DNA of 64,000 nucleotides from a virus: IMG/VR virus record IMGVR_UViG_3300032087_005129, one strand, 5' to 3'. Shown one piece after another: positions 3,172 through 32,702 of the stretch. A model generated the notes under the pieces. The model was given only the letters and a program-made list of their open reading frames with translations, ran no database searches and was not told the origin of the DNA. Every line of letters begins with the position of its first letter. Within the stretch, counting starts at the first letter, position 1. The translations under genes were made by a program, and so were the position numbers.

Positions 3172-4155
3172 ATGTCTATCTTTACTGACAAAAACTATAT
3201 CAATCGTTTGTCACCTAACTTGCAACTGTTCTCATGGAAAAAAGACGATCTAGCAAACTGTAGGTGTCCTGTCTGTGGTGACTCTAGCAAAAACAAAAGA
3301 AAAGCAAGAGGTTACTTCTATCGAAAAGCAAACAACATGTACTACAAGTGCCACAACTGCGATTTCGGTTGTTCGCTTGGCAACATGATTAAACGTCTTT
3401 CGCCTTCTCTGTTCAAAGAGTATCGTCTTGAAAACTACAGAGCGGGTGAAGTGAACAAGCCAAATGTTTCGAAGCCAGAGTTCAAGTTTGAGCCTGTGAA
3501 ACTTAGAAAGAAGATAGGGGTTCCGATACAAGACTCCCTTCTTTCAGTTTCGTTTCTTCAAGCAAGAAGAATCCCAGAGAATCTATACTCAAAGTTTCGT
3601 TTTTCTGAGTGCTTTATTGATGATGTGAAGAAGGTCAATACTGATATTTCTGTTGGCTCAGAGAGTCGTATTTTAATTCCTGTTTATGATGAAAAGAAAA
3701 ATTTGATTGGCGTTCAAGGCAGAGCGATGAATGGTGAAAAGCCAAAGTACATCACAATCAAAACAGATGGTTATCAAGATCAATTGATCTATGGCTTAGA
3801 TTCTGTAAACGATCAGAAGACGGTCTGTGTGTTTGAGGGTCCGATTGACTCTATGTTCATACCCAATTCTGTTGCTGTTCTAGGAGCGAATCTAAAGGGG
3901 GTAGTAGAGAAATTTAGTGACTGTGTGTTCTGTTTTGACAATGAACCAAGAAACAAACAAATCGTGAGTAAGATGCAAGAAGCGATTGATCTTGGCGAAA
4001 AAGTTTGTATCTGGCCAGAGAGTCTTAAGATAAAAGATATCAATGACATGATAGTGTCTGGAATGACTGTAGAAATGATTCAGAACATTATCGAGTTGAA
4101 CACATTCAGCGGCAATGCTGCAAGATTGAAATTTGTAAAGTGGAGAAAAGCATGA
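3172..4155 (+). CDS. gp61: DNA primase (T4 gp61-like)
   Basis: Zn finger NCRCPVCGDS..NK.KARGY..YKCHNC; TOPRIM motifs VFEGPIDSMF, FDNEPRN, KDINDM. Confidence 0.95.
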   Translation: MSIFTDKNYINRLSPNLQLFSWKKDDLANCRCPVCGDSSKNKRKARGYFYRKANNMYYKCHNCDFGCSLGNMIKRLSPSLFKEYRLENYRAGEVNKPNVSKPEFKFEPVKLRKKIGVPIQDSLLSVSFLQARRIPENLYSKFRFSECFIDDVKKVNTDISVGSESRILIPVYDEKKNLIGVQGRAMNGEKPKYITIKTDGYQDQLIYGLDSVNDQKTVCVFEGPIDSMFIPNSVAVLGANLKGVVEKFSDCVFCFDNEPRNKQIVSKMQEAIDLGEKVCIWPESLKIKDINDMIVSGMTVEMIQNIIELNTFSGNAARLKFVKWRKA

Positions 4156-4880
4156 ATGTATTAGACAAAGGACATGTTGAATATGTCGATCACATGGGAA
4201 GTGACTTGATGGTTGTTAACGCAGCCAGAGTTTCGTTTAGCAGTGAGAGTGAATGGGGGCTTGACTACGATGCAATCGAACGTTTAAAAAGTTCACCATA
4301 CAACAAAGATGATGTTCGAAAACTAAAAGAGAAAGATGAAAAACTAATTCGTTATCTTGCAAAGCACCAGCACTGGACTCCGTTTGCTCATCCGCAGATT
4401 ACGCTAAGAATCAAAGCCCCTGTGTCGATTCGAACACAACTTTTTAAACACAAAGTTGGCTTCACAGAAAATGAAATCAGCAGACGATATGTTTCGTATG
4501 AACCTGAGTTTTACCACCCTGAGTGGAGAAGTAAACCAACAGATGGTGCGAAACAGGGCAGTGATGATTTTGTAACTGAGGAAGCCAAAACAAATTTATA
4601 TGATGCTATTTACAGAGAGTCATGTGAAAAGGCTCTTCATGTTTATAACACATTGATCGAAAAGGGTATTGCACCTGAGCAAGCAAGATTTGTTTTGCCG
4701 CAGGGTATGTACACAGAATGGTACTGGACAGGATCACTTGCTGCGTATGCTCGTGTTGTTCGTCAAAGAGATGATTCTCACGCACAATGGGAAGTTCGTG
4801 AGTATGCAAAAGCAATCTCAAGTTCAATTGAAAATCTTTTTCCTGTATCATGGAAATACCTTACTGCCAACAATAAATAA
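4152..4880 (+). CDS. thyX: FAD-dependent thymidylate synthase
   Basis: VVNAARVSF, HWTPFAH, QLFKHK..NEISRRY, EQARFVLP, HAQWEVR motifs. Confidence 0.95.
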   Translation: MNVLDKGHVEYVDHMGSDLMVVNAARVSFSSESEWGLDYDAIERLKSSPYNKDDVRKLKEKDEKLIRYLAKHQHWTPFAHPQITLRIKAPVSIRTQLFKHKVGFTENEISRRYVSYEPEFYHPEWRSKPTDGAKQGSDDFVTEEAKTNLYDAIYRESCEKALHVYNTLIEKGIAPEQARFVLPQGMYTEWYWTGSLAAYARVVRQRDDSHAQWEVREYAKAISSSIENLFPVSWKYLTANNK

Positions 4881-10549: not shown

Positions 10550-11050
10550 ATGATTGAGTTTGATTACACACTGGATTTTGACAACATCGATTACCGTGAA
10601 AATCCAGAAATGTATATTATTGGTCGAGGAGAACAAGGAGTATTGCTCTGTGAACCATACAAATCTGAAATCTGCAAACACTGGAGATTTCGAACGCCTG
10701 AAATCGCGTTCGCATCGGCAAATAGAATTTACACTATGTTTAATGACTATCTTATTCGTGATGAGTTTGTTGGGGCTGATATGGCACGCAAGTTCCTTAT
10801 GATGGGATGGACAAGAGCAAGAAGGTATGCCAATCATCGTAACGGAAAGAAATACGATGATAAAGGTAGAATCAAACCACAAGAGTCTGATCATTGGACT
10901 TGTGATAAAGCAGAGTCGGCACGAATTTTTAAGCGTGTATACGATGCAGCAAGAACAAACAAAACTTACAGAACAATGGTTCGTGAGTGGAGAAAAAAAG
11001 AGGAGAAACGCGCCGTGGGAGGAACTGGCACTTCTCAGTGCGACTTATAA
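10550..11050 (+). CDS. DUF4385-like protein
   Basis: Y.IGRGEQGVL..EPYKSE...WRFRTP, FVG.DMARKFL.MG.TRARRYANH motifs. Confidence 0.8.
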   Translation: MIEFDYTLDFDNIDYRENPEMYIIGRGEQGVLLCEPYKSEICKHWRFRTPEIAFASANRIYTMFNDYLIRDEFVGADMARKFLMMGWTRARRYANHRNGKKYDDKGRIKPQESDHWTCDKAESARIFKRVYDAARTNKTYRTMVREWRKKEEKRAVGGTGTSQCDL

Positions 11051-11084
11051 TCGTGCAAACTTGGTTCGATTCCAAGACGGCGTA
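11010..11084 (+). tRNA. tRNA-Ile(UAU), atypical D-arm, no encoded CCA
   Basis: Acceptor GCGCCGT/ACGGCGT plus A73; T-arm CTTGG-TTCGATT-CCAAG; anticodon arm GTGCGA-CTTATAA-TCGTGC; D-arm GAGG-AACTGGCA-CTTC. Confidence 0.8.
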
Positions 11085-27299: not shown

Positions 27300-28457
27300 A
27301 TGGCATTGACTGATGTATATTTTGCTGCTGGTGACGTTATTAGATCAGCACAACAAGATGGAACTACACCTGGCACTGCTTTCAATGCACTCAACGCTTC
27401 GAGCGACGACTGGGGAAATAATATCAAAAATGCGGATAGAGCAAATCGTCGCTTTATTTTTCTTGAAGGCACTTACAATGTGCAATCAGAATTAGTCTTC
27501 ACAACAAGTGATCCGACTATAGCAGATCCGAACATATGGGTTGGTGCAAAGAGTGACGGAACACTTCTTGAACCACAGTTTGACGAAACAGGTATGCACC
27601 TCGTCACAGACAACTACCCAAAAATCATTAACTCTGCAAACACCACTCTCATCGACACTGCTGCGGTTGAAGTTTTTAAGTGTATCCACTTTGAAAATAC
27701 GAATGCCAGCAGAAATGGTTTTCTCATTAATAATGATTTTAATGAATCAAAGAATATCTCATTCATTGGTTGTTATGGTAAGATAACACCCAACGGAACG
27801 AGTTCGACTATTTTTCAAGTTTGGGGTGGGACTGCATTGATGTGTGAAGCAGTGATGAATGGCACCAACTACAAAAACATCATCAATGCAGGAGGAACAA
27901 ATCAATCTGCTGTCATAAATTGTCGTGTGTATGGTGGAGGTAAAAGTGGAACCAATGAGGGTCGAGGAATCGAGTTAGGAACACTCAATGATTCTGTTGT
28001 TGAAACTTTGATTTACAATGTTCACGGTCCTGCAATTTATGATGGAACAAGTAATGATCGAAATTCTAACATGATAAATTGCACCGTCATTTCTATTGGT
28101 GGTGATGGACATGATACCTCTACTGGAACAGATGATCAGAGAGGAACTTCTATTCATGGAAATATATTCTTTGATATAGATGGTGATGGTGTGAAAGCAA
28201 ATGCAAATGATGATGATATTGTTATCGCATCCTTTAATGCTTTTGGTAGCATTGGTGGATCTAACTTTGTAAATTTAGATTCGTATGAATCTATGGCAAC
28301 TATCGGAAATCAAACAGTCTCGACCAGTGACTTTGTTGACTATGCTAACCAAGATTTTAGAATAGCAAAAACGTCACCCTTGTATAAGGGTATCGGTGGG
28401 ACTCGAAACTTTGGTGCGATTCAAAATCAAGACTTTGAATTTGTAGGAGCAGGATAA
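27300..28457 (+). CDS. Right-handed beta-helix (pectin-lyase-like) protein, paralog 1
   Basis: N/G/I-rich coil repeats (NCRVY, NCTVI, GNIFF); C-terminal FVD..N.DFR....SP...IGA. Confidence 0.65.
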   Translation: MALTDVYFAAGDVIRSAQQDGTTPGTAFNALNASSDDWGNNIKNADRANRRFIFLEGTYNVQSELVFTTSDPTIADPNIWVGAKSDGTLLEPQFDETGMHLVTDNYPKIINSANTTLIDTAAVEVFKCIHFENTNASRNGFLINNDFNESKNISFIGCYGKITPNGTSSTIFQVWGGTALMCEAVMNGTNYKNIINAGGTNQSAVINCRVYGGGKSGTNEGRGIELGTLNDSVVETLIYNVHGPAIYDGTSNDRNSNMINCTVISIGGDGHDTSTGTDDQRGTSIHGNIFFDIDGDGVKANANDDDIVIASFNAFGSIGGSNFVNLDSYESMATIGNQTVSTSDFVDYANQDFRIAKTSPLYKGIGGTRNFGAIQNQDFEFVGAG

Positions 28458-29617
28458 TGTCAGTCACAGATTTATTTTTTTCCCCAACAGGTGCAGGTAA
28501 CAATTCAGGAGATTCTGTAGCAAATGCGATGCCGGCAACAGATGGTGCAGGTGACTGGTCTACAGAAATCAAAAGTCAAGATCGTCAAAACAAAAGATGG
28601 ATCTTCTTAGAGGGAACATACAATGTAAGTTCCGAACTTGTTTCAACGGGATCAGAGGCAACAGATACGCAACCAAACTTTTGGGTGGGTGCAAAATCAG
28701 ATGGAACAATACTTGAACCATCCTTTGATGAAACTGGTATGCATCTTGACACCACACACTACCCGATGATTACCAACAGTGCTGCTACAGCGATTTATGA
28801 CAGCGACTCTCAGGGTCACTTTTACTGTATTGGTTTTGTGAATACAAATTCTTCGTTTGGTCGTGACGGTGTTGTAAATAATGTTTTCAGTGAGATTCTT
28901 TATGTGTCTTATCTGGGATGCTTCTTCAAGGCAAAAACAACAATCAACACAAACACATCTGTTCATAAGATGGTGGGTGGCAATCTTATCATGTGTGAAG
29001 TTGTAGCAGAACCAGACAGTGATAATTTAGGGGCAGTTTTGGATGCAAGTGGGACGCACAATACTCTGATAGCAGATAGTCGAATATATGGACCAGGCAA
29101 GACTCAATCTATCAGTGCTTCGACTGCTCATCACATTATATCTACATCCAATGTCGTCGGAACACACATACTCTATACATTGATGGCAGATGGAGCAGCG
29201 GACGGATTTCATTTTGATGCGACATCTGCATCGAGAAATAGTGTAATCTATAAAAACACTTTTGTAAATCTTGCTGGTGATGCTATGGACTTTCAAGAGT
29301 TAGACACTTCCACACAAGGGCATCGTGTTGACGGTAACATAGCATTCAATGTAGATGGTAATTTTGTGGAGTCTGATGCAGAGGGTAAACTGTTATCGTC
29401 AAAAAATTCATACTCTGGTTCGGCAGCATACTTCAACGGCATCACAGAGTTTAGTGTGTTAAACACCGAGGTTTCGGCAGTGACCGCTGACTTTTTTGAT
29501 TATGATAATGCAGACTACAGGGTAAAAAGAACATCAAACGTGTTCAACAGGTTTAAGGGTTCTGGAAACATAGGTGCATTTCAAAACGAAGATTTCGAGT
29601 TTGTTTCAGTTTCATAA
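28457..29617 (+). CDS. Right-handed beta-helix protein, paralog 2
   Basis: Shares FLEGTYNV.SELV, WVGAKSDGT.LEP.FDETGMHL and GA.QN.DFEFV with the previous ORF. Confidence 0.65.
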   Translation: MSVTDLFFSPTGAGNNSGDSVANAMPATDGAGDWSTEIKSQDRQNKRWIFLEGTYNVSSELVSTGSEATDTQPNFWVGAKSDGTILEPSFDETGMHLDTTHYPMITNSAATAIYDSDSQGHFYCIGFVNTNSSFGRDGVVNNVFSEILYVSYLGCFFKAKTTINTNTSVHKMVGGNLIMCEVVAEPDSDNLGAVLDASGTHNTLIADSRIYGPGKTQSISASTAHHIISTSNVVGTHILYTLMADGAADGFHFDATSASRNSVIYKNTFVNLAGDAMDFQELDTSTQGHRVDGNIAFNVDGNFVESDAEGKLLSSKNSYSGSAAYFNGITEFSVLNTEVSAVTADFFDYDNADYRVKRTSNVFNRFKGSGNIGAFQNEDFEFVSVS

Positions 29618-29932: not shown

Positions 29933-29940
29933 TATAAATA
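29933..29940 (+). promoter_or_regulatory. T4-type late promoter TATAAATA
   Basis: Exact consensus followed by the AAGGAG SD of ORF 29962. Confidence 0.75.
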
Positions 29941-29961
29941 TACTTAAGGAGATTCTTTATT

Positions 29962-30990
29962 ATGAAAAAAATTGCTTTATTGCTTTGCAGTGTTTTTACA
30001 TACAATACAACTGCAAACACTGACTGCCTAGATGTTTCTGGCGATATCATCGCTGTTGACCGTGGCAGAATCACACCATTCGGTAGAACGTTTGATCTTT
30101 ACATCAAAACGAACGGGCGAAGACCGCTTGGTTTGGGTGCGTCTTGGCCACGCATTCACAATGACCTTGCTGTTCCTTTTCGGTGGGAAACAGAAGGTGA
30201 GTTTTTCTTCAACCGAAATTTAAACACCCAACCTACTCTCGAAAATTCACCAGAGGCAATGGAATATTGGCTCAACAAGTATGAGTGTCCAAACATTAAT
30301 GGGGTGTATGATTGTGAACCAGGAGAATATTTCTTCTGCATGCAAGACAATCCATACAACAACTGGCTCTACAGCAATCACGAAGTTTCACAGCGTTGGG
30401 ATGTCATCGGTCCCTACGGCATTCCACGATGGAACGAACCTTACTATGACTCATACTGGGACAAGGGAACCTCATGGTTGGTAATGAATCGTCCCGGTTA
30501 CATCTTCCCCGAAAGCACCAGCGGCGACCAAGCCACACCAAGAATCGATCAAAGTAAAGGATTGTTGTTGCAAAACGATTACTACTTTGAACAAGCACCA
30601 ACGCCCTATGACGGTTATGAAAGTTACGAATGTGGTGGGTACAACTATAACGAATTTGGTAAAGTCATTGAGTTTGGTTCTGGTGATTGGGAAGATGACG
30701 AAATGGAAAACCACTACCGCTTTGCTCGCATGACAGGTATTGATCGTATCGCAATCAGCGGTGTGATTATTTACAGTGCAGTTGATTGCCAAGATCTGAA
30801 CTTTGCTGAGCCTGTTTTCTTTGAGTATGAACCAGACAACTCTTGTCCTGCTGATTTGGACGAAGATGGTAGAGTTGGTTTTTCAGACTTGCTTACTGTA
30901 CTGAGTAATAACATTTACGCACCAGGAGCAAGAAAGACACAGTTTGATGCTTTGATTGAAGTTATTTCGCAATGGGGAGATTGTCAATGA
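29962..30990 (+). CDS. Secreted protein with C-terminal dockerin-like Ca-binding motif, paralog 1
   Basis: Signal-like MKKIALLLCSVF; C-terminal CPADLDEDGRVGFSDLLTVLS...WGDC. Confidence 0.7.
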   Translation: MKKIALLLCSVFTYNTTANTDCLDVSGDIIAVDRGRITPFGRTFDLYIKTNGRRPLGLGASWPRIHNDLAVPFRWETEGEFFFNRNLNTQPTLENSPEAMEYWLNKYECPNINGVYDCEPGEYFFCMQDNPYNNWLYSNHEVSQRWDVIGPYGIPRWNEPYYDSYWDKGTSWLVMNRPGYIFPESTSGDQATPRIDQSKGLLLQNDYYFEQAPTPYDGYESYECGGYNYNEFGKVIEFGSGDWEDDEMENHYRFARMTGIDRIAISGVIIYSAVDCQDLNFAEPVFFEYEPDNSCPADLDEDGRVGFSDLLTVLSNNIYAPGARKTQFDALIEVISQWGDCQ

Positions 30991-31991
30991 TTTTAGAATT
31001 ACTTTGTGCTACAGCACTTTCACAAACAGAAATTGTTTATAAAGATTTGGGTAGACTCACACCGTTCGGAAGAACCATTGATGTCTACATTAAGAACACT
31101 CGCGGTGATGTTCCTGTTAAATTAGGATCTGAAGGTCCAGGCACTTCTGTTGCTTGGTGGATTGACGGAAAGGTTTGGAAGAACCACAACGATTCGCAAA
31201 TGGACTTCCTACTGAATGACCCTGCAAATGTTGAATTTTTGGAACAACAAATTCCAAACTTCTCTGACTGGGAAGCAGGTGAATGGTGGGAGTGTATGCA
31301 AAACAATCCAAACCAAACTGTCTACTGGCAGAACACCGATGTTCCAAGATTCTATTATCAAACTACTAGTGTTGATGGTTTGTTCTGGGGTGATTTACAA
31401 ACATCACTGATTGAACAAGATTACTGGTGGGCAGACTCATGGATCGTGATGAACGAACCGTGGCAACAAAGTGGAAACAACGCAAGCACATTCACAGTGC
31501 AACCTGAGATTCCACAGTTTGTCGGTAATCTGCTTGAAGATGACCGAGTGATTTTCTGGGCTGGTGCTGCACCCCCGAACGAATACGGCACCGTTCTTTG
31601 CCCTCCACCCGACGAAAACGGAAACTTTGGATATCCGTGGTCTTGGTCTGGTCAACTGATGCGATTCAAGAATTACGGTCCCGATGATGTGAACCCGTGG
31701 GAGTCCACTGAGTTTGACAATCACTGGCGAATTGCTCGCATCACTGGTCCCGACTATATCGGCATTGGTGGAGTGGTTCTTTACAATCCAGAGAACGAAG
31801 AAGCGTACACTGAAGCCACAGGAGCAGGGCAAATCTTCCCTGACAACTCTTGTCCATCTGACTTGAACGAAGATGGAATTGTTGGCTTTAGTGACTTGAT
31901 TCAAGTTTTGTCTGATGTCTCAGCAAGACGATATCGTGTCGATGGCTTCGAAGCGATTGTTAAGGTATTGTCAGAATGGGGTTCTTGCTAA
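30987..31991 (+). CDS. Secreted protein with C-terminal dockerin-like Ca-binding motif, paralog 2
   Basis: ATGA-coupled start MILELLCATALS; C-terminal CPSDLNEDGIVGFSDLIQVLS...WGSC; shares GR.TPFGRT.D.YIK and NH.R.AR.TG with paralog 1. Confidence 0.7.
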   Translation: MILELLCATALSQTEIVYKDLGRLTPFGRTIDVYIKNTRGDVPVKLGSEGPGTSVAWWIDGKVWKNHNDSQMDFLLNDPANVEFLEQQIPNFSDWEAGEWWECMQNNPNQTVYWQNTDVPRFYYQTTSVDGLFWGDLQTSLIEQDYWWADSWIVMNEPWQQSGNNASTFTVQPEIPQFVGNLLEDDRVIFWAGAAPPNEYGTVLCPPPDENGNFGYPWSWSGQLMRFKNYGPDDVNPWESTEFDNHWRIARITGPDYIGIGGVVLYNPENEEAYTEATGAGQIFPDNSCPSDLNEDGIVGFSDLIQVLSDVSARRYRVDGFEAIVKVLSEWGSC

Positions 31992-32017: not shown

Positions 32018-32058
32018 AATCGGTGGCCGTTTCACAGTTTCGGTCACCGATTTTTTTT
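32018..32058 (+). terminator. Terminator-like hairpin
   Basis: AATCGGTGGCCG / CGGTCACCGATT 12-bp stem with an 11-nt loop, followed by a T-run. Confidence 0.7.
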
Positions 32059-32078
32059 GGGATTAAAAAGGAGAGATT

Positions 32079-32702
32079 ATGATGAAATACTTGGCGCTGA
32101 CACTAGCGACTGCTGCTCTTGCTGATATCGGTGGAGACCCAGTGGCATCACTTGAGTCAGAAATTTATGGCGAGAACTGGGCTGCTACAGTTAGATCATC
32201 TGTCTACACAGAAAACGAGCAACAAGATCAACTAGGACTACCTGACGGTTCAATACTAATCACATACACAATCTACAATAGCGAAGAATCACTGTCTGAA
32301 ATTGAAGACGTTGATATTTTTGTTGGCACTAAAACCGAAGAAAATAGTCATCTTTCTGTTCCTGGATACTTTCAACAACCAACAGATGATGAAAATAGAC
32401 AAGCATATAACGCACCCGACTATGTTGATTTTGCGTACGAAACAGGGTTGTACAACTGGGACTGGGGCGCCGAGGGAAACTTTTTCTCCTCAGGATTGAA
32501 ACCTGGGGAATACGCAACTCTATTCGTGATATCATGGACGGATGGATGGATCGAGAATCCTGGCATCGTTCAGGGTGGAGGTGACGCAGGGATCTTTTTT
32601 GCTTTTGTTCCTGAGATTGACGGACAAGAAATACCTGCACCTGGCACACTCACCCTTCTTGGTCTTTCGATCATTGGCAACAGAACCAGAAAGCGTAGAT
32701 AA
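32079..32702 (+). CDS. PEP-CTERM-type (IPAPG variant) exosortase-target surface protein
   Basis: Signal MMKYLALTLATAALA; acidic body; C-terminal IPAPG-TLTLLGLSIIG-NRTRKRR. Confidence 0.75.
   Translation: MMKYLALTLATAALADIGGDPVASLESEIYGENWAATVRSSVYTENEQQDQLGLPDGSILITYTIYNSEESLSEIEDVDIFVGTKTEENSHLSVPGYFQQPTDDENRQAYNAPDYVDFAYETGLYNWDWGAEGNFFSSGLKPGEYATLFVISWTDGWIENPGIVQGGGDAGIFFAFVPEIDGQEIPAPGTLTLLGLSIIGNRTRKRR

Follow-up and report, generated by a model that had tools for sequence, protein, structure and literature searches.

We analysed a 64,000-nucleotide stretch of viral DNA (IMG/VR record IMGVR_UViG_3300032087_005129; this whole stretch is called the window below) and found that two adjacent late genes, here named dokA and dokB, encode proteins that end in a dockerin-like module. 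Profile comparison identifies this module as homologous, from its first to its last cysteine, to C-terminal tails of proteins from Planctomycetota. In the reading that we favour, with slightly better than even confidence, dokA and dokB are late accessory proteins that do not enter the virion; they would be exported, docked through their tails to the envelope of a host belonging to Phycisphaerae and active at the surface of that host.

The final ~50 residues are the best-conserved part of these proteins, with a mean column identity of 75% across 55 family members. They begin with a cysteine, run through P-x-D-L-[DN]-E-D-G-x-V-G-F-x-D into a helix and, after ~20 residues, a second helix, and close with W-G-x-C. 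A first reading of this DNA from its letters alone (the sequence-only reading) had pointed out both motifs, and indeed C-P-x-D-L begins exactly at the first position of each module in the table below, and W-G-x-C terminates both proteins. The first loop has the canonical EF-hand/dockerin ligand positions, with D, D/N, D, G, V and D near-invariant in the 55 sequences, and its pattern is absent from all other open reading frames (ORFs) of at least 80 residues in the window. The Dockerin_1 family is recognized by two tandem repeats of ~22 residues, each a 12-residue Ca loop followed by a helix, with Asp or Asn at loop positions 1, 3, 5 and 12. By this measure, the second repeat of the phage module has kept its helix and lost the acidic ligands of its loop. 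The ~20 residues between the helices had been described as extra ones that look like a degenerate repeat. They are real, and this "insert" aligns residue for residue with the second loop–helix repeat of planctomycete modules; the phage module is therefore of the two-repeat type, with a decayed second Ca site.

The dockerin-like character first proposed from the letters extends to the predicted fold. We modeled dokA with AlphaFold2 (mean predicted local distance difference test score, pLDDT, 75.5; predicted template modeling score 0.79), and in this model the module (pLDDT 79–95) has the fold of a dockerin. The top structural match to residues 291–342 was dockerin 2y3n_D (Z 5.3, root-mean-square deviation 2.8, 49 of 49 residues), the Z score being modest, in keeping with a domain of just 50 residues. 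Four further dockerins (2ozn_B, 2vn5_B, 6kg9 and 2ccl_B) match the same residues.

Comparison of the phage-module profile (A3) with that of the planctomycete tails (A4) in hhalign gave a probability of 99.2% (E 3.5e-19, 41% identity over 56 columns). The planctomycete proteins, which came from scans of 185,579 species genomes, share the C-terminal architecture and have both loops intact. All 12 loci confirmed in the first scan were from Planctomycetota, mostly from marine metagenome-assembled genomes (MAGs) of Phycisphaerae. In the second scan, which used the module alone as query, six of the nine confirmed loci were from Planctomycetota. Matches that cover both repeats came only from this phylum and mostly from Phycisphaerae, a distribution in line with the statement of the sequence-only reading that the CPADL...WGxC module is very common in Phycisphaerales. 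In three marine Phycisphaerae MAGs (1.8–2.6 Mb), the profile of the phage module finds 73, 47 and 91 matches. The planctomycete tails align with the whole length of the NCBIfam model NF041540 ("GC-type dockerin domain-anchored protein"), at 18–26 bits and so below its curated cut-off of 29 bits, and the tail of a Phycisphaeraceae homolog (L083) scores 23.1 bits against Pfam PF00404 (Dockerin_1), reaching the gathering cut-off of 22.9. In the host group, the tails are carried by many unrelated enzymes (GH16 and GH66, for example), a pattern expected of a module for anchoring or targeting. A separate 1384-residue Phycisphaerales protein (L099, ~4001–4156) has a dockerin-like repeat directly before a V-P-A-P-G PEP-CTERM tail, the two anchors standing together. 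Literature searches found no paper on "GC-type dockerin" and none on phage-borne dockerin tails.

Besides the homology of the tails, two independent lines point to a Phycisphaerae host. The first concerns pep, the gene downstream of dokB, whose product ends in a PEP-CTERM-type tail. Each of the same three Phycisphaerae MAGs encodes an exosortase (E about 1e-41), and all 12 PEP-CTERM tails that we recovered from them have the form [VI]-P-A-P-G, the same as in the phage protein. The second line comes from a 44-kb IMG/VR contig with a GC content of 55% (L013), which carries a dok gene together with a serine integrase. Of 401 Phycisphaerae genomes, 12 contain relatives of its terminase (up to 48–51% identity), which probably belong to prophages. 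When all phyla were scanned, the best full-length relatives of this terminase came from Anaerohalosphaeraceae and other Phycisphaerae (46% identity), and the next ones mostly from other Planctomycetota; these relatives were found by an alignment-based scan, an exact-pattern scan with this terminase alone having found nothing. On these comparisons, the most likely host is a marine member of Phycisphaerae, which agrees with the planctomycete host that the sequence-only reading had suggested. Literature searches found no described planctomycete phages, and L013 offers a possible route to a cultivable host–phage pair. Among the Planctomycetota matches ranks a further terminase, 43% identical to that of L013, from a MAG titled Deltaproteobacteria RS363 (L122; Tara Red Sea); this may reflect a mis-binned contig or a broader host range of the L013 lineage.

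That the host is not a planctomycete at all, and that the resemblance reflects the widespread EF-hand/dockerin-like repeats of marine bacteria, strikes us as very improbable. Single-repeat matches do occur outside Planctomycetota, in a group of MAGs (G004/G005) with 11–24 matches per genome (E ≤ 0.001) and in Terricaulis. The cultured phages nearest to the window by gp6 infect Pelagibacter and Methylophilales (41–42% identity; the closest is Pelagibacter phage HTVC008M at 42%). The GC content of the phage, ~39% over the window as against 53–61% in the candidate host MAGs, also fits this alternative and weighs against our assignment. T4-like cyanophages and marine Synechococcus, however, show a comparable gap in GC content. 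Moreover, matches that run the full length from Cys to Cys come only from Planctomycetota, no exosortase was found in the G004/G005 group, and Phycisphaerae are indicated independently of the module by the form of the PEP-CTERM tail and by the terminase of L013. The tails of the G004/G005 group are of a single-repeat D-N-S-C-P-A-D-L type. Two of its records, titled Comamonadaceae (L095, in G004) and Flavobacteriales (L098, in G005), are reported as each other's relatives and share near-identical proteins; the titles of these records are probably unreliable. The window also encodes a tRNA-Ile with anticodon TAT (11010–11084), which reads AUA; this is in keeping with an AT-rich phage whose host has a higher GC content.

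Export of the dok proteins is plausible from the features of their sequences. Within its first 28 residues, each of the 64 distinct N-termini in the family contains a nine-residue hydrophobic stretch (Kyte–Doolittle value ≥ 2.0), followed in every case by a Pro/Gly-rich linker, so that the signal-like peptides noted on the pair recur throughout the family. Of the 48 long ORFs in the window, dokA and dokB alone reach the same hydrophobicity. Many family members have textbook n-h-c signal peptides (ending in S-F-A, for example), and the N-termini of others are short and uncharged. The cysteines that flank the module are invariant and further ones are conserved in the family; with the hydrophobic N-termini, these favor an extracytoplasmic location, and the conserved Cys pairs and acidic isoelectric points (pI 4.1–4.3 for the dok proteins) are compatible with it. 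We also considered dokA as a lipoprotein and rejected this, the residue preceding the Cys being incompatible with a lipobox.

dokA and dokB are paralogs that align over their full length (34% identity, E 2e-46), and the portrayal of the two as a W/Y-rich acidic pair proved accurate. Trp makes up 2.9% and 5.3% of their residues compared with 0.9% across the other proteins of the window, a 3- to 6-fold excess. Scans of both proteins against Pfam, PHROGs and NCBIfam matched no family, and blastn and tblastn searches of 50,697 deposited phage genomes, from which the dok family is absent, returned no match to the dok region or to dokA. The predicted late promoter is a perfect TATAAATA box; this sequence occurs 11 times in the window, each time on the + strand, against an expectation of 2.2, and none of 100 shuffles reached 11. 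The hairpin behind dokB folds with −19.6 kcal/mol (z −5.2), and no equally good fold was obtained in 200 shuffles. With its own late promoter and its own terminator, the pair therefore constitutes a discrete late transcription unit. An alternative ATG for dokB lies at 30987, in an ATGA overlap with the TGA of dokA. The window itself is a piece of an uncultured marine T4-like myovirus in which gp5, gp25, gp6, gp7-like and gp8-like genes flank the dok pair.

Table. Features of the dok region and of the adjoining gene pep (positions in the window).
Feature	Position	Strand	Description
Late promoter box, T4-type, TATAAATA	29933–29940	+	22 nt upstream of dokA ATG
Shine–Dalgarno sequence AAGGAG	29946–29951	+	Between promoter box and dokA ATG
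dokA	29962–30990	+	342 residues; signal-like N-terminus (~residues 1–18), phage-specific beta-sandwich domain, C-terminal two-repeat dockerin-like module
dokA N-terminal domain	30040–30816	+	Trp/Tyr-rich beta-sandwich with long loops in the AlphaFold2 model
dokA C-terminal module	30844–30984	+	First to last Cys; canonical Ca loop and helix, degenerate second loop and helix, W-G-x-C
dokB	30972–31991	+	339 residues; paralog of dokA; start overlaps end of dokA
dokB C-terminal module	31851–31988	+	Dockerin-like; same C-P-x-D-L ... W-G-x-C architecture
Intrinsic terminator	32020–32058	+	GC-rich hairpin of 10–11 bp followed by T8; directly 3′ of dokB
pep	32079–32702	+	207 residues; canonical signal peptide, immunoglobulin (Ig)-like beta-sandwich, [VI]-P-A-P-G PEP-CTERM-type tail

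Members of the dok family turned up on 103 viral contigs of IMG/VR and in 56 protein clusters from metagenomes, in phages of at least three types: T4-like, T7-like and the integrase-bearing L013. In a T7-like podovirus (L009), the dok gene lies between the replication and head genes, and in another T4-like phage (L019), it directly follows gp23. Two sister phages of the window (L080 and L005) encode flanking proteins that are 98–99% identical to those around the dok pair and have a single gene of ~34% identity in place of both dok genes. DNA homology to the sister phages ends at 29999, within the signal-peptide codons, and restarts at 31838, at the start of the dockerin-coding end of dokB. With the breakpoints at these places, the conserved ends act as recombination handles by which the variable body is swapped. 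In the same island, 27300–29617 is a second swap-prone slot, occupied by tandem paralogous genes (385 and 386 residues, with a weak match to DUF5123) where the sister phages L080, L005 and L001 have a shorter unrelated sequence between conserved flanks.

The sequence-only reading had proposed that the phage captured a host tag and duplicated it, and this part was not borne out. The module is present family-wide, in more than 100 viral contigs and at least three phage types. Its GC content at third codon positions (0.28–0.37) is phage-like, and on this account we rejected the idea that the tail was recently acquired from a GC-rich host; the modest excess of the genes in this measure sits in their N-terminal domains. 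A quick tree places dokA, dokB and the main group of the family in separate old clades, or subfamilies, and a recent tandem duplication was rejected on this ground. The tail is therefore better seen as an old trait of the family than as a recent acquisition or duplication in this phage.

The same mobility bears on the suggestion that the dok proteins are virion adhesins or decorations, whose tails on the baseplate or fibers would bind a host dockerin receptor for attachment. The dok genes do lie among baseplate and fiber genes behind a late promoter, the genes around them encode collagen-like and other variable fiber proteins, and the cassette is as hypervariable as those of receptor-binding proteins. 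However, signal-like N-termini and disulfide-type cysteines are ill-suited to assembly of virions in the cytoplasm, dok is paired with a putatively exosortase-sorted protein, and the dok unit has a promoter and a terminator of its own. The gene also moves among phage types and genome positions, taking places such as those described above, which makes a virion component unlikely and argues for an accessory envelope protein instead. We therefore disfavor virion-borne use of the tail, which had also been raised from the letters alone, and judge it improbable.

The N-terminal domain (~270 residues) has diverged to ~30% identity across the three subfamilies, in all of which the module is kept. The sequence-only reading had expected matches dominated by Phycisphaerae both for the C-terminal module and for the shared N-terminal domain. 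This was so for the module, and the domain had no relative in the 401 Phycisphaerae genomes, nor by pattern in the species-genome contigs; on this evidence, it is phage-only. A Foldseek search of PDB and BFVD returned nothing at E ≤ 0.001. The best structural matches of the domain were cohesins (~14 of the best 50 listed), all of them at Z ≤ 4.2 and thus not evidence of cohesin identity. We give little credence to the idea that the domain is a divergent cohesin-like module, in which case each dok protein would contain the two partners of a cohesin–dockerin pair and could either polymerize into a coat on the surface of the infected cell or plug and displace dockerin-tailed enzymes of the host. 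If true, it would amount to a viral takeover of a "planctosome"-type surface assembly in a phylum with almost no characterized phages.

In the reading that we favor, dokA and dokB would be made late and exported via the host Sec pathway by means of short, putative N-terminal signal peptides, and each tail would fold around a single Ca ion and be clamped by a disulfide. The tail may then dock to whichever envelope partner holds the tailed proteins of the host, so placing the phage-specific Trp/Tyr-rich beta-sandwich body where it could act, at the surface of the infected cell. The most likely action would be masking of a receptor or surface glycan, leading to superinfection exclusion, or protection of progeny from adsorbing to debris. 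The neighboring pep protein might use the host exosortase in a similar manner.

Several observations weigh against this reading. The second Ca loop of the phage module is degenerate, the Dockerin_1 model of Pfam does not match the whole dok proteins (E ≤ 1), and the isolated 57-residue phage modules match neither this model nor NF041540 at E ≤ 10. A search of the three MAGs of candidate hosts for the Pfam cohesin PF00963 found none. At the N-terminus, K or R precedes the hydrophobic stretch in just 30 of the 64 family sequences, and nine of the 64 are net-negative. The fold matches of the N-terminal domain are too weak for assigning an activity, and late expression is unusual in classical superinfection-exclusion genes. 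The degenerate loop, the failure of the dockerin models and the lack of a detected Pfam cohesin would also suit a different role for the module, that of an ancestral, non-docking structural cap stabilized by Ca, on proteins that are soluble in the periplasm or released (glycan-binding or lysis-associated ones, for example); late timing, too, would suit a function at the stage of lysis or release. We consider such a cap rather unlikely, as the module is the part that is best conserved and kept across three subfamilies while the N-terminal domain drifts, and as the host-group tail sits on so many unrelated enzymes.

The proposed docking can be set beside several known systems. GC-type dockerin proteins (NF041540) and the tails of secreted proteins from marine Phycisphaerae resemble the phage module in its location at the extreme C-terminus, a Cys before the Ca loop (C-P-x-D-L), two repeats and the final W-G-x-C; the phage module differs in scoring nothing against NF041540, in having lost the Asp ligands of its second loop and in being fused to a domain for which the 401 Phycisphaerae genomes gave no match. 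Cellulosomal dockerins (PF00404; 2y3n_D, 2vn5_B and 2ccl_B) have the same duplicated F-hand Ca-binding loop–helix fold of ~50 residues. In contrast to them, the phage module has no Pfam score, a disulfide clamp, one degenerate Ca site, no cohesin partner found in the three MAGs and no tie to polysaccharide-degrading complexes. Freshwater Phycisphaerae (Nemodlikiaceae) have been suggested to possess a cohesin/dockerin "planctosome" (PMC6461901), in which dockerins would attach secreted proteins to the planctomycete surface in a Ca-dependent way; this is the system that the phage would exploit, but it is itself a hypothesis made for a freshwater lineage, and the MAGs in which we found no Pfam cohesin are marine. 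In our working model, the dok proteins would also resemble the T5 lipoprotein Llp (PMC9586334) and the periplasmic T4 protein Spackle (PMC7677548), small exported envelope proteins that block infection or protect progeny. Those proteins rely on a lipobox or are soluble in the periplasm, whereas the dok/pep phage has a dockerin-like tail and a PEP-CTERM tail; they are early and dok is late, they have no relation to dok in sequence or fold, and the function of dok is a proposal.

If the favored reading is correct, the dockerin-like tail and the [VI]-P-A-P-G tail would serve as sequence-based host markers for phages of marine Phycisphaerae, linking uncultured marine phages of T4-like, T7-like and temperate kinds to Planctomycetota. 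Two host-specific anchoring systems would join lipoprotein and periplasmic signals as phage routes to the host envelope, and a small phage protein could be used as bait for the binding partner of the many GC-type dockerin tails of planctomycetes. A cassette that recombines at its signal-peptide and dockerin ends is a natural case of domain shuffling under phage–host conflict.

The product of pep scores 15.3 bits against Pfam PF07589, under the cut-off of 20.7 bits; its C-terminus has the conserved architecture of a P-x-P motif, a transmembrane helix and an Arg cluster at the extreme end. An ORF with a PEP-CTERM tail lies downstream of the dok genes in ~20 of 80 viral loci, and we saw no exosortase in the window. 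The gene adjoins the dokB terminator, with a strong Shine–Dalgarno sequence within 32059–32078 and no TATAAATA box of its own. Its body had no relative in the scan of species-genome contigs, and its predicted structure is an Ig-like sandwich of a generic kind (best Z 8.0). We considered pep as a phage-supplied, cohesin-like anchor for the dok proteins and rejected this: cohesins are absent from its top 50 matches, and 60 of the 80 dok loci lack pep. Some phages encode a third exported family of ~280–290 residues between the dok and pep genes (L002, 10035–10910; L024, 3881–4760; L011, 6874–7710), which ends in a dockerin-like loop–helix pair without the flanking cysteines. On a podovirus-like contig (L035, 2802–3467), a 221-residue protein encoded upstream of dok ends in a hydrophobic stretch and an Arg cluster, which may be another variant of a sorting tail.

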